Source of the DNA: Eledone cirrhosa
Taxonomy: Eukaryota
Direction of reading: 5' to 3'
NCBI GenBank assembly: GCA_964016885.1
Contig: OZ024742.1
Location: forward strand, 144,832,001-144,896,000
DNA: 64,000 nucleotides
Made by a program: the position numbers and the translations under genes
Shown here: in pieces, positions 3,741 through 45,290 of the stretch
Numbering within the stretch: the first letter of the stretch is position 1
Layout of the letters: each line of letters opens with the position of its first letter
The notes under the pieces: model-generated
Told to the model about the DNA's origin: nothing
What the model saw: the letters and a program-made list of their open reading frames with translations, nothing else
Database searches by the model: none

Positions 3741-3775
3741 TCTTCTGATGAAGGACTAACGTCCGAAACGTTAGA
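3741..3775 (+). ncRNA. minimal type I hammerhead ribozyme (Penelope pLTR type)
   Basis: CTGATGA-A-GGAC-taac-GTCC-GAAA-CGTTAG; palindromic AACGTT in stem III, as in dimerising PLE HHRs. Confidence 0.75.
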
Positions 3776-4404
3776 CCCCCCCCCCTCCACTGTCATGATA
3801 TATCAAGCGTTAACCTAATATATCCCTTCCATATACTGTGTTGTTATTTCTGTTTACCTTTTACATACATATATATGTATATATATATACAAATATAAAT
3901 TAGCGAGAATCGTATTTCAGCTCAGGAATTAACGAAAAACAACTTCCGATATATATATATATATATATATATATATATATATATATATATATATATATAT
4001 ATATATATATATATATATATATATTAGAAAGATCGAGTATCGAAAAATCGGCGCACGAGTTCACGATAAACAATATTCGAAATGAGCGGCAGAGGGCTCA
4101 ATAATTCAGATGAATCAGAGCTATAACTATCGTTAAAATACCGTCACATATAGAACAAGTCTACAATCAACCATACGATAAAAAATCGATAATAGAAGAT
4201 TCGGGACAAACAGATAAAAAATATCAATAAAACAATACATCAATATATATATATATATATATACTGTATATATATATATATATATATATATATATACGTG
4301 TGTGTATGTCTGTGTGTGTGTGTGTGTGTGTATATATATATATACATATATATATATATATATATATATATATATATACATATATATATATATATATATA
4401 TATA

Positions 4405-4696
4405 TCGAAACAGCTTGAGCTCTGCCGTCGGGGTCATACATTTTCCTATTACCCACTCTACTACCCTAAGTATTGGGTACTCTGGTGCGTTATGGTCCAT
4501 CTGGTTCCTTACCATAACTCCTTCGTTATATATATATATATATAACTCCTTCGTTATATATATATATATATATAACGAAGGAGTTATGGTAAGGAACCAG
4601 ATGGACCATAACGCACCAGAGTACCCAATACTTAGGGTAGTAGAGTGGGTAATAGGAAAATGTATGACCCCGACGGCAGAGCTCAAGCTGTTTCGA
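4405..4696. repeat. ~125 bp inverted repeat around a (TA)n spacer
   Basis: 4405-4530 is the reverse complement of 4571-4696; an extra ATAACTCCTTCGTTA copy lies at 4542-4556. Confidence 0.9.
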
Positions 4697-5430
4697 CGGC
4701 TATTTCTGGACTTTATATATATATATACAAGATATGAACCGTTGTCTGACGCCGTTTTTTTTGTTTCTTTGTACTTCCAAAGTAACCGAAACCTACTTTC
4801 GTTATTGTTGTATATATGTTTAGGACGTGTTGTTACTTCGTTCCATTATTTTACGTTATAAAAGTACCAGTAATGTACTGGGTTATTGCTAGCCTTGTGC
4901 CAAAAGTAGAAACAATTATTTTACGTTGGTATCTAAGAATTTGAACGCATCAATATTCAGCGAGGATTTTTTTTTTAAATGGTCACGGTGAGTCACGTGA
5001 TGCATGTTTCATCTGTCCTTCGCTCTCCTAAAAAGAAACAAGAATTTAAAACCGTGTCTACTAGTTGGCAACTTTTGGTTCTCATGAAGAGTGTATATGG
5101 AGGTTATTGTAAATATTTGTATTAGGAGTAAAGTTCAGTGTTGGCCTGATATCTTTGATACCGGGATCATTGAGTTTGACAATTCCATTTATTCATATAC
5201 ACTTTATTAATTAGCATTATTTCACACTTATGAAATCAAATCTATTCTATATCTGAGAACCTTCTATAGCCCTTAACCCGTGGTGCTTTTCATTACGTTG
5301 CGTTGACACCAGTTTACTATAAATAAACACCTTATAATCGAAACCCATTTCTTCGTGTATTATAAATCGTTTGGATATTCTTCAATATAGAGAACATCGT
5401 GCGCACAAATATATATATATATATATATGT

Positions 5431-5552
5431 ATATCATATGTAAATGTATGCATATATATATATATATATATATATATATATATATATATATATATATATA
5501 TATATATATATATATATATATATATATATATGCATACATTTACATATGATAT
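5431..5552. repeat. perfect 122 bp palindrome centred on (AT)40
   Basis: ATATCATATGTAAATGTATGC-(AT)n-GCATACATTTACATATGATAT. Confidence 0.9.
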
Positions 5553-5682
5553 GCCTCGCACTACTATTCTGACTAAAGAAGTTAATAGATGAAGTAAATT
5601 AATAACATACACCACCTAGCCAATATCAAGATTATCACACAGTACAAACCAAACATTGTAGTTGTCGCATATTATTAACATA

Positions 5683-41355: not shown

Positions 41356-41699
41356 TTTTCCTACTATATCAAACATAAAACTAATATATTTCTTCATTGC
41401 ATTGCGCCGTTTGCTTTGCTTTTTCTGTTTGCCTTTTGTACACATACACACACACACGCCCACGCACACCTACACGCACCCCCACCCCCACCCCCACACA
41501 CTCACTCAAATACACACACACATACACACACACACACACACACACACACACACACACACACACACATACACACACACATACACACACACACACACACACA
41601 CACACACACACATATATATATAAGAATAATTACATCTTCAAGAAGATGCCTCACATTCATTCACCTTCGGTGAACATAGCCTTGCCGAAGAAGTGTTAA

Positions 41700-42330
41700 T
41701 GACATCAGACGATGTCCAACATTCTTTTGGTGTTTTGAACCTCAACCGTATCACCCTCTACCTGGTGGGCCAGCAGTGATGGCTAAATTACTACCCATCT
41801 TCGTCTCCTGGCCTCCAGCTTATTTCCTCTCTTCTGCTCCAAAGCCAACAAAAGGCTCTTTCTGCTGCCTCTCACTTCCTGCGAACGGCAGCCTTCTTCT
41901 CTCTTCCTGTCATTCGAATAGCAGTCAGCATTTTGCATAGAGTGGGCCGGAAATCCCCTGCAGCCCACCTCGACTGGAAACAGCCATGCTTGCAAGCCGT
42001 TCTCCATACACTCCTGCACAAGTTCTTGATATTTGGCACTCTTTCGTTCAAAGGCGTTGCCGCACTCTTTTACCCATGGGACAGAGAGTTCAATCAGGAT
42101 TATTCTTTTTATCCTATAAACCAAAGTACTACATCTGGACTCAAGGATGTTTGAACAACCCGTGGAAACTGCAGCCTATCTCCCAGATCAACCCTCATGT
42201 ACCTTGATTGGGCCATTTTTAGTAGGTTGTATGTTGTTCTAACTGTAGTAGATGGCTTCTCTTCCTCTTTCACAAATCTTATTGATGATGTTGGCTTCCT
42301 CCATGCTTTGAGTTCCCTCCATCTCTCTTG
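41700..42330 (-). mobile_element. HERO-like RLE non-LTR retrotransposon 3' fragment
   Basis: TSLSPDVVLW, IILIELSVPW..AFERKSAKYQEL..C..PVEVGCRGF: PD-(D/E)xK restriction-like endonuclease. Confidence 0.8.
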
Positions 42331-44074
42331 ATCCATATATATATTCAGAGAGAGAAGGATTTGAATCAACTAAGACTATTTTCGCAATTTCAAGACTAAA
42401 ATATTTTTAGGTGTGTTAAGCAGATAATAATCAAACAAGAGAAAGAACTCTTACAGTCCTGGCTTATCAAAGGCATTGGGAATAGAGCTTGTCTATAATG
42501 CAACGGACATCTTTCTATCTTATTAGTTCTTCTCAGCGAAGTATATTCACGCAGCAAGTTATAGACAAGGCTGAGTGAAACATCCAAGTATAGATATAAG
42601 GATAGGAAAATTTAATGTGTTGGTTATGTATGAGTTATATCAAAAGGTAGAGACAAAAACACACTAGGGGATCGCTCTGTATAAGGTTTATATATTCAAA
42701 TTGATTCTTGAAGCCTGAATTTGGCGATTGAGAAAAAACATTTCTGTCATCCAAGTTTATATTTGCAATTGCATGACCGAAACTCTCTCTCTCTCTCTCT
42801 CTCTCTCTCTATATATATATATATATATATATATATATATATATATATATATAGAGAGAGAGAGAGAGAGAGAGAGAGAGAGAGAGAGAGAGAGAGAGAG
42901 AAGAAAGAGAAAGAGAGAGAGAGAGAGGGAGAGAGTTTCCTTGCTCTTCTCACCTTTTATCTTTCTATTTTATCTTTTCTTATTAACTATAACTTCTGAT
43001 GTATGTATATATATATATATACATTAATATATATATATATATATATGTGTGTGTGTGTGTGTGTGTGTGTGTGTGTGTGTATATATATATACATATATAT
43101 ATATATATATATATATATATATATATATATATATATGTATGTATGTATGTATGTATGTATGTATGTATATGTATGTATAAATATATATGTATATATATAT
43201 ATATATATATATATATATATATATATATATAAACGGAAAAAATGAAACGAAATTTCATTTCGCACTCTTAGTACGGCTGTTACTTAAATATAAGTATGTA
43301 TACGTACATACATATACATATGTATACTGTACGTCTGTATACATATATGTATGTACGTATACATACTTATATATATATATATATATATATATATATATCA
43401 ACAAACAGAGAAAATGTGTGAAGATGGTGGTAAAGAACTGGAAGATGTCGCACCAGAATGTCGATAGTGGAGGATGACAATAAAACAATATGGAGTCGAG
43501 CAAGTAGTAGCTCTGACAGGATAGAAATATAACTATCCTTACTTTTCGAAGGAATTAGAGCGTGTGAAAGAGAAAAGGCGTAGAGAAGATGCAGCAGTTG
43601 AAATTGAATAACAGATACATGCCTAAACTATTAAGATGCTATGGGCGAAGCTACAGCAGCCTGTCAAATTCAGATTAACTACATTATTAAATGCGTGTAT
43701 TTTATATATATGTGTGTGTAAGCGTGTGTTTGTGTGTGTGTCTCTCTCTCTTTCTCTCCCTCTCTCTCTTTGTTACAGAGAGTGAGAGAGGGTATGTATC
43801 TAAGTATGTATAGGTAGAGAAAGATAGAAGTAATACTTTCTGTCTGAAGATTCCAGTTACGTATGTGAACGCTAAAAAACAGAAGCACATTTCCTTTTCG
43901 TTTTTCTGTATCACGGTTGTGTTAAATACATGTTAATGTTTATGTGTATTTATACATCTGTGTACTTATATGTATTTATGCTATGGTATATTTAAAATTC
44001 GTGCATGTCTGCATATCAAAGTTTGTGGTGCGAAGTAATAACGTCTATTTAACTATATATCTAACATGCGAAGC

Positions 44075-44847
44075 CGGGTTGGAAGTGGCATCGAGACTGT
44101 CGGGTGTAAGATCAGTCGGCAGGAATTTACACACGACATGGTACTATTTAACTCATCAGAAAATGATCTCCGACATGTACTTGATAGTTTTGCTGCCGAG
44201 TGCTACAGGACAGGGATGAAAATCAGTGCAGCGAAGACTGAAACACTCCGCCTCTCAAAGAAGCCTGCACAGTTCACTCTACATGTGAGTGGAGTTCCAC
44301 TGAAGCAGGTGGAAAAGTTCAAGTAACTTGGGGCCGTGTTTACAAGTATGAGACTGATTAAAGTGCAATAATTACTAGAGCTGGTGCAGTAATTCGCCAG
44401 CTCGCTATCTTCAATTCGGTATTCGTGCCAACACTTACCTTTGTTCCTGAATCTCGGGTAATACCGAAATATTATGATCGTGATTACAAGTGGCTGAAAT
44501 AGGGTTCCTCCGCAGGGTTTTGGAGTAAGGTTACTCGGCAGAGAGCCGCTAATTCTCCGAATTGAGAGGTCACTACTTCGATATTACGGACTTGTAGTTA
44601 GAATTGTCTAAGGAAAGAATCGCTGCACAGATTTTACGAACAAAACCAACCGGCGTGAGATCCAGGGATAGACTCGGAGGAAGATGGTAGGATAACATCC
44701 ATGGACTTGGCTGGTCTCACTTAGGAATTCAGTCGGATCAATTGAAGACAGTTGCTTTTGACGAGACTTGCTGGAAGGCATGATTGAGGAGTCTTCCCCC
44801 GCAACCCTTCTAAGAAGAAGAAGAAGAAGAAGAAGAAGAAGAAGAAG
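44075..44847 (+). mobile_element. RTE-clade LINE 3' portion, decayed, with (GAA)n tail
   Basis: FTHDMVLF (FADD-like), ECYRTGMKISAAKTE, LKQVEKFK*LG; tail 44812-44847. Confidence 0.75.
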
Positions 44848-45254
44848 CCATTACCTTTATGTAAACCTTACTAGTTGTTGTTGCATCGACCTTTCACTTA
44901 TAAACTATATTACTAGTTAGGCTCGCATAGAGCCAATGATTCAAGCAGCGTTTATAATGCACTTTCGTTTATTTCGAAATTCTTTAAGAAGATATATAAC
45001 TTCACTTTCAGCCTGTATCAGGAGTTTTAAAGTTGTGACACAATTTCGGCTTGTAAATATAAACTATAAAAAACATTTGTTATATTTCAGCCCAACAGTG
45101 TTTCATAATGAATAAGACGAGTTTACAACCGAACAGTATGTAGATGAAATACGCCATGATGCAGTAGATAAGAACACCCAAACTTTATACTTAGTTTCAT
45201 GAAAAATCAAATATTTTCACAAGCTCTGACAGTTGGCAGGTAAACAGTATACGG

Positions 45255-45290
45255 TACTGATGAAGGGCAATAACCCAGAAACATTAGTGT
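45255..45290 (+). ncRNA. hammerhead ribozyme-like motif
   Basis: CTGATGA-A-GGG-caataa-CCC-A-GAAA-CATTAG. Confidence 0.5.

Follow-up and report, generated by a model that had tools for sequence, protein, structure and literature searches.

One-sided tails on head-to-head hammerhead insertions of Penelope-like and retrozyme-like elements in Eledone cirrhosa

Head-to-head inverted copies of Penelope-like elements (PLEs), with a tail at one end and with AT-rich or (TA)n targets, have already been described (PMC3846280, PMC8557442), as have opposite-strand hammerhead pairs and the coexistence of many hammerhead families in one genome (PMC4209133), and a PLE origin of retrozymes has been argued (bioRxiv 10.64898/2026.07.22.740005). 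PMC8557442 counts the formation of such inverted, tailed PLE insertions among the questions still to be answered. We analyzed a 64,000-nucleotide stretch of the Eledone cirrhosa genome (GenBank assembly GCA_964016885.1, contig OZ024742.1, positions 144,832,001 to 144,896,000; hereafter, the window), in which hammerhead motifs occur in PLEs and in non-coding repeats, five times as head-to-head pairs. The architecture itself is known, not new (PMC3846280, PMC4209133, PMC8557442), and the window is therefore a good example of it rather than a discovery; its content can be explained as commonplace remains of PLEs and retrozymes, if in unusual abundance.

The window pairs resemble the Penelope elements of Adineta vaga, which have inverted head-to-head pseudo-long terminal repeats (pLTRs), an optional tail on one of them, and AT-rich targets (PMC3846280), as well as the Schistosoma min-HHR (HHR, hammerhead ribozyme), whose opposite-strand pairs lie 100-700 bp apart (PMC4209133). 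The relevant passages of these two papers offer examples and favor self-priming, and give no counts of one-tailed pairs or of variant sharing. In vitro, the tail of the PAc element (Poseidon clade, from Anolis) is bracketed by two reverse transcriptase (RT) start sites, and both strands of an AT-rich target are cut and extended; the enzyme is a predicted dimer, and ribozyme cleavage is unnecessary for insertion (PMC11167929). The passages on these assays report no difference in start site between the strands and do not discuss inverted insertions (PMC11167929). The literature on octopus hammerheads, PLE twin priming, and PLE mechanism, of which few subscription papers were covered, yielded no one-tail, one-template rule, and an octopus repeat annotation (PMC13282606) makes no mention of ribozymes in its available part. 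A tail rule that crosses families is, in this setting, a modest, testable addition to the open mechanistic question.

A strict hammerhead descriptor (CUGANGA, a paired stem II, and GAAA) identified seven motifs in the window (3745+, 10807-, 22420-, 35520+, 40684-, 40757+, and 45257+), whereas 100 local dinucleotide shuffles gave 0.51 on average and never more than 3. The motifs are genuine and well above chance, in line with the initial annotation, a reading of the sequence alone that had proposed about seven hammerhead families here. Four further sites (27234, ~32280, 32469, and 41321) are homologous copies with mutated cores. Genome searches returned 234-2,475 first-look candidates per family; of 40 loci scored, we retained 20 in the case of family E and 30 in that of every other family. 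These searches grouped the sites into seven families: A (3745, 41321), B (10807, 32310), C (22420), D (27280), E (32526, 35520), F (40684, 40757), and G (45257). Seven cores are intact and four broken; the estimated number of families is confirmed, and the proposed diverse community of PLEs and hammerheads is supported.

All five of the inverted pairs that had been proposed are present, with their 3' ends facing outward. The layout, described there as recurring, is not common to the whole set: the motifs at 3745, 22386, 41321, and 45257 are unpaired, and family A was inverted in 1/30 top-hit copies and in 0/7 copies from random regions. Among top-hit loci (window copies included; two of the F hits are simple-repeat artifacts), an inverted copy lay on the 5' side in 14/30 B, 19/30 C, 19/30 D, 10/30 F, and 7/30 G loci. 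Family A, which has one 3' end and no tail in its top copies, is essentially single-ended. The predicted association with inverted arms was also evident in random regions, where neighbors within 500 bp formed 13 divergent and no convergent pairs, compared with six and four for a short interspersed nuclear element (SINE); by eye, 16 of the 35 insertion clusters in these regions were two-armed.

The distance from the 3' end to the start of a (TA)n tract was 25 bp or less in 23/29 A, 14/28 B, 21/28 C, 20/28 D, 26/29 F, and 13/29 G copies (duplicates and window copies removed). These values, 45-90%, compare with 11.6% of random positions and 10/85 SINE ends, and bear out the (TA)n association in the initial annotation. 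Family E short ends ran into (TA)n in 4/11 cases and continued into the tail in 7/11, six of which then ended in TA. The further suggestion that such tracts are fragile sites is not supported: the literature attributes the (TA)n bias to the endonuclease linker (PMC8557442), and at the single informative site of 63 in an empty-site search, the empty paralogs held only a short, imperfect AT tract. One tract (32385-32436) is common to B and E insertions, and different families are also stacked at L291 (L numbers denote genomic loci).

Families B through G each have two fixed 3' ends, ~40-80 nt apart, and the longer end, or tail, is almost always confined to one arm of a pair. We scored 79 pairs, 73 of which had both ends at fixed sites; exactly one arm was tailed in 67 of these 73 (Fisher p = 7e-14). 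After nine doubtful loci were checked and four pairs set aside as unreadable, 65/69 pairs were one-tailed, four lacked a full tail, and none was two-tailed. The rule holds in 5/5 window pairs once the displaced tails of families E (36014-36108) and F (40391-40446) are counted, both of which the initial annotation had missed in setting the limits of the elements. In family F, the tail was on the inverted arm and missing from the main arm in 7/8 pairs. Further, among 18 family B loci with an identical junction, the tail was on the loop-sense arm in nine, on the other arm in six, and ambiguous in three (by eye). The recurrence of one head-to-head junction at 18 genomic sites suggests a stall or joining hotspot; family B copies are mostly 5'-truncated at or within the hammerhead (L111-L140, L221-L238).

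The two arms of a pair also agree with each other. Discordance at diagnostic sites, relative to that expected for random copies, was 12 versus 24.4 in family C, 0 versus 8.0 in D, 1 versus 19.1 in F, and 6 versus 16.8 in G, and shared non-majority variants exceeded expectation in C (22 versus 5.3) and D (8 versus 1.5). The first 100 family B motifs listed contained 17 divergent and three convergent close pairs, and the variable loop II was identical between arms in 17/17 divergent pairs (both by eye). Arm-to-arm divergence was 3-11%, indicating that most pairs are old and not fully homogenized.

The presence of a tail on only one arm of each pair suggests that the two ends of a cut in the host DNA probably each served for copying one and the same RNA, from different start points. 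We consider double-ended priming the probable, though by no means assured, explanation of the head-to-head pairs found among three autonomous PLE families and four non-coding ones; the double-ended integration mode named in the initial annotation is likewise the best reading of the arms and tails. By double-ended priming, (i) the element's enzyme would cut both strands of AT-rich DNA; (ii) each DNA end would prime one of two cDNAs, with a single RNA or source as template; (iii) the cDNA begun at the distal site would carry a 40-80-nt tail and the one begun at the proximal site would have none; and (iv) both would stop early and their truncated ends would be joined, leaving the 3' ends outward. 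We infer both the use of a single RNA molecule for the two arms and the way in which they are joined. A broader proposal, for and against which we see the case as evenly balanced, is that PLE integration is obligately asymmetric and double-ended, a dimer priming one cDNA per start site on one RNA, with retrozymes inserted likewise and the rule recorded across Hydra-clade, Neptune-type, and non-coding families. Together, the one-tail rule and the shared variants yield a specific prediction for the in vitro assay already in use. The ends of the elements lie elsewhere than the cleavage sites predicted for them, and either a circular or a multimeric RNA would account for copies that exceed one unit.

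Several observations weigh against double-ended priming. Shared variants are near chance in B (3 versus 2.3) and G (5 versus 3.8) and borderline in F (p = 0.058); diagnostic sites are linked within a locus; and the same degree of agreement would follow if a single source locus were dominant or if the arms had undergone gene conversion. The top-hit sets favor long copies and, for B, tailed main arms. An inverted arm is lacking in 19/35 random clusters (by eye) and in nearly all family A copies, target-site duplications are unreadable within (TA)n, and no open reading frame (ORF) was found for B, C, D, or G among the loci kept. Finally, the element assayed in vitro belongs to the Poseidon clade, unlike A, E, and F (PMC11167929).

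Three other routes to the pairs can be set beside double-ended priming. Self-priming, in which fold-back on an antisense template gives a palindromic intermediate that a staggered endonuclease step trims at one end, is already in print (PMC3846280); it predicts head-to-head arms from one template, as observed, and short palindromes recur at family B junctions. Plain fold-back, however, cannot yield a tailed inverted arm from a tailless first arm, as in 7/8 family F pairs, nor a junction loop direction independent of the tail, as at the 18 family B loci. Moreover, the tailed arm often holds sequence absent from its partner, which argues against simple fold-back, and in vitro the tail ends coincide with RT start sites on sense RNA (PMC11167929). 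The data contradict simple fold-back of the first cDNA; a free palindromic intermediate is compatible with them. Overall, we regard self-priming as unlikely. A palindrome created after insertion, by host repair or replication error at (TA)n fragile sites, would explain why both arms are of one subfamily, and hammerhead-free palindromes also exist in the window (38911-39597, 5431-5552). We nonetheless judge this origin very unlikely: duplication would carry host flanks and random ends, whereas the inverted arms stop at two family sites, often with a tail absent from the partner, and the far more abundant SINE has no such orientation bias. About as hard to credit are two independent events, in which another member of the family homes in opposite orientation to the first copy or to its AT-rich flank. 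The stacking of different families at a single (TA)n (32385-32436, L291), the existence of same-family convergent pairs (at 4380-4726 in the window, and three among the first 100 B motifs listed), and the in vitro cleavage by PAc of the junction between its ORF and pLTR (PMC11167929) are consistent with separate insertions, but such events do not predict the 13:0 ratio of divergent to convergent pairs, the (TA)n-free arm joints, the one-tail rule, or arms of the same subfamily.

Least likely of all, in our view, is that the motifs match by chance or only resemble functional ribozymes. In its favor, a scan of the window against Rfam gave no hammerhead family and only microsatellite-driven miRNA matches (best 150 of 281 matches), and minimum free energy folding was better than in shuffles for just two of eight window copies, those at 3745 and 45257 (z-score -3.7 for the latter, the family G core); folding energy was therefore dropped as proof. 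Family F has an imperfect, mismatched stem I, and that of family E is poorly readable. Within families, conservation among copies is scarcely higher in the core than in its flanks, as expected if insertions decay neutrally. Against it stand the seven motifs where shuffles give 0.5 and the 62,867 exact genome matches (below) where reversed patterns give 31. Further, the family majorities of A, C, D, and G, and of B when longer copies are used, form complete type I layouts, in which stem I, stem III or a palindromic loop 3, and a UH site are readable. Between family B subfamilies, stem I changes on both sides (two pairs, six cells), a covariation score reached by 4/500 shuffles in a control that ignores relatedness. 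Cores were intact in 21-27/30 copies for each of families A, C, D, F, and G (27/30 in A and 25/30 in D) and in 11/30 for B. In family E, 7/12 of the copies listed (loci L001-L020) have a C, in a CpG, at core position 4, and the source element may have had a non-canonical core. On this layout evidence, the families would be predicted to encode self-cleaving ribozymes. One motif, at 51089, was dismissed, as it lies inside the ORF of a long interspersed nuclear element (LINE) and fails the stem test.

Families A, E, and F are the 3' ends of autonomous PLEs, the links being made through ORF pieces in relatives, upstream of the hammerhead-bearing repeat. Relatives of family E carry a PLE ORF with RWK, DKT, and YRDD motifs and a linker of the CxCX5C form. 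Its GIY-YIG domain lacks the pair of cysteines between GIY and YIG; the endonuclease is C-terminal, with CxxC and CxH close to the end of the protein. Its nearest clusters in the Atlas are RT/GIY-YIG proteins with mostly cnidarian recorded members. By its motifs, family E appears to be a Hydra-clade PLE, sharing with that clade RWK, DKT, CxCX5C, the absence of CCHH, a C-terminal endonuclease, a hammerhead, and (TA)n (PMC8557442). It differs in its abundance, with no fewer than 1,814 candidates, and in its ~80-nt tail, which exceeds the 30-40 bp quoted (PMC8557442). Relatives of A and F encode an RT and a GIY-YIG domain with a CX4CxxC linker, directly upstream at L095, L100, and L105 for family A and, as an upstream ORF, in many family F relatives. 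These motifs point to Neptune- or Nematis-type PLEs, from which family A departs in being tailless and almost without inverted copies (PMC8557442). Pfam-A returned no family for six PLE pieces, and PDB sequences gave no match for one.

Families C, D, and G are non-coding, with periods of 316, 331, and 404-435 bp, and are found as partial tandems; no family-linked PLE ORF was present in 30 loci each. Family B had neither an ORF nor a tandem unit in 30 loci, its ~450 bp of upstream sequence being followed by microsatellite. The link of every family to an autonomous PLE, which the initial annotation had sought, was therefore made for A, E, and F, whereas B, C, D, and G have no ORF of their own that we could find. 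These four are likely mobilized by PLE enzymes, which they would borrow. We class C, D, and G as retrozyme-like by unit structure: as in non-LTR retrozymes (LTR, long terminal repeat), their non-coding tandem units carry a type I hammerhead, lack an ORF, and coexist with PLEs (PMC7229834). They also bear the marks of PLE insertion, an inverted arm and a one-sided tail; the word "inverted" is absent from the available text of PMC7229834. Such insertion-level marks on retrozyme-like units bear on the mobilization of retrozymes by PLEs, which has so far been proposed but is unproven.

The window is no hammerhead hotspot. The 3.0-Gb genome from which it comes is that of an animal with plentiful (TA)n, LINE fragments, and the SINE (205 bp), and 59 evenly spaced 10-kb regions contained 71 strict motifs, compared with 0-10 in ten shuffles. 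The density of the window is not special: these regions are equally dense, and seven or more motifs were reached by 49% of random six-region draws. Three patterns gave 16,169, 27,447, and 19,251 exact genome matches (62,867 together), with 31, 0, and 0 for the reversed controls. The sample contains 29 matches to these patterns where 12.4 were expected, a ~2.3-fold overshoot, so that the window is at most ~2x the genome average; straight extrapolation of density (~340,000) was accordingly cut back after calibration on the exact counts. The genome total is at least 62,867 motifs and probably ~150,000. The hammerhead counts given in the cited papers for coral (>6,000), mussel (~5,000), and Xenopus (~9,000) are far exceeded, although counting methods differ.

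Hammerhead-bearing insertions in the window. Positions count from the first nucleotide of the window.
Feature	Positions	Strand	Remarks
Family A solo 3' end, 5'-truncated, putative Neptune-type PLE	3727..3867	+	Minimal core 3745-3768; ends in (TA)n
Family B head-to-head pair	10486..10878	both	Tailed minus arm, core 10807; short plus arm 10815-10878
Family C, 1.2 copies of 316-bp non-coding tandem unit	22258..22634	-	Full hammerhead, core 22420
Family D head-to-head pair, 331-bp non-coding unit	27121..27673	both	Minus arm stops at short site
Second family B pair	32172..32383	both	Tailed arm minus, short arm plus; both cores mutated
Family E inverted arm	32437..33612	-	93.5% identical to main arm
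Family E main arm, putative Hydra-clade PLE	33612..35612	+	Long 3' region; hammerhead core 35520
Family E tail	36014..36108	+	97.9% to tailed relatives
Family F head-to-head pair, putative Neptune-type PLE 3' end	40391..40997	both	Arms 98.8% identical; cores 40684-, 40757+
Older family A-like element	40994..41437	+	RT remnant 40994-41146; 3' end 41304-41437, broken core 41321
Family G solo copy, 404-435-bp non-coding unit	45203..45415	+	Short end; full hammerhead core 45257

Several of these insertions are interrupted or decayed. The minus arm of the first family B pair is broken by a SINE at ~10539-10759, and the family E tail is split from its main arm by two SINE copies (35613-36028). The family C copy has a closed stem III, a GUC site in the family majority, and no inverted arm. 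In the family D pair the minus-arm core is broken, and the plus arm, from 27525, bears the tail; in family F the tail is on the minus arm and the plus arm is short. The short end of the family E inverted arm lies in the (TA)n common to the adjoining family B pair. PLE coding sequence had been thought to survive at 32437-35610 alone, where the main arm retains a frameshifted GIY-YIG remnant (33612-34227), but remnants also occur just 5' of the 41321 motif (RT; E = 3.5e-7) and on the minus strand at 360-1860 (RT and endonuclease). The latter belongs to a decayed, GC-rich PLE (360-2580, minus) with ~66% DNA identity to family A, whose 3' end lies past the window start and in which no hammerhead core was found. 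As this relative is coreless, only 66% identical, and has its own end beyond the window, we dismissed the idea that 3745 is its inverted arm.

Other double-ended repeats were noted in passing. At 4380-4726, two tailed 3' ends of an eighth family face inward around (TA)n, the reverse of the arrangement seen in the other pairs. Random regions held 43 pieces of this family, with 13 divergent pairs and one convergent pair, and a tail on one arm in 11/13. Longer genomic copies have a hammerhead-like fold with a core that reads as the U3-A8 variant described in Schistosoma (PMC4209133), a variant that CUGANGA scans miss. A ninth head-to-head family (45455-45648) has a one-sided tail of ~43 nt and no core among the copies on hand. 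At least six more hammerhead families lie outside the window (L203, L216, L217, L254, L255, L259, and L271), mostly as divergent pairs, and one such family accounts for the 19,251 exact genome matches.

The remaining repeats in the window are of other kinds. A 687-bp palindrome (38911-39597) is 99% perfect, lacks a hammerhead, and is not matched anywhere in the random regions (590 kb). Two 137-bp inverted repeats (25941-26079 and 26925-27061), 97% identical and 1 kb apart, are possibly a miniature inverted-repeat transposable element, and a similar pair is found in L264. Remnants resembling a PIF1 helicase and a UCH protease (23319-24857), below or near the Pfam cut-off, may be what is left of a Helitron or a Polinton-like element. 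A LINE with apurinic endonuclease (APE) and RT domains is present at 47164-63400 and 11157-13412 as several copies, nested or in tandem, one of which (47871-51029) retains an open stretch of 1,052 aa.

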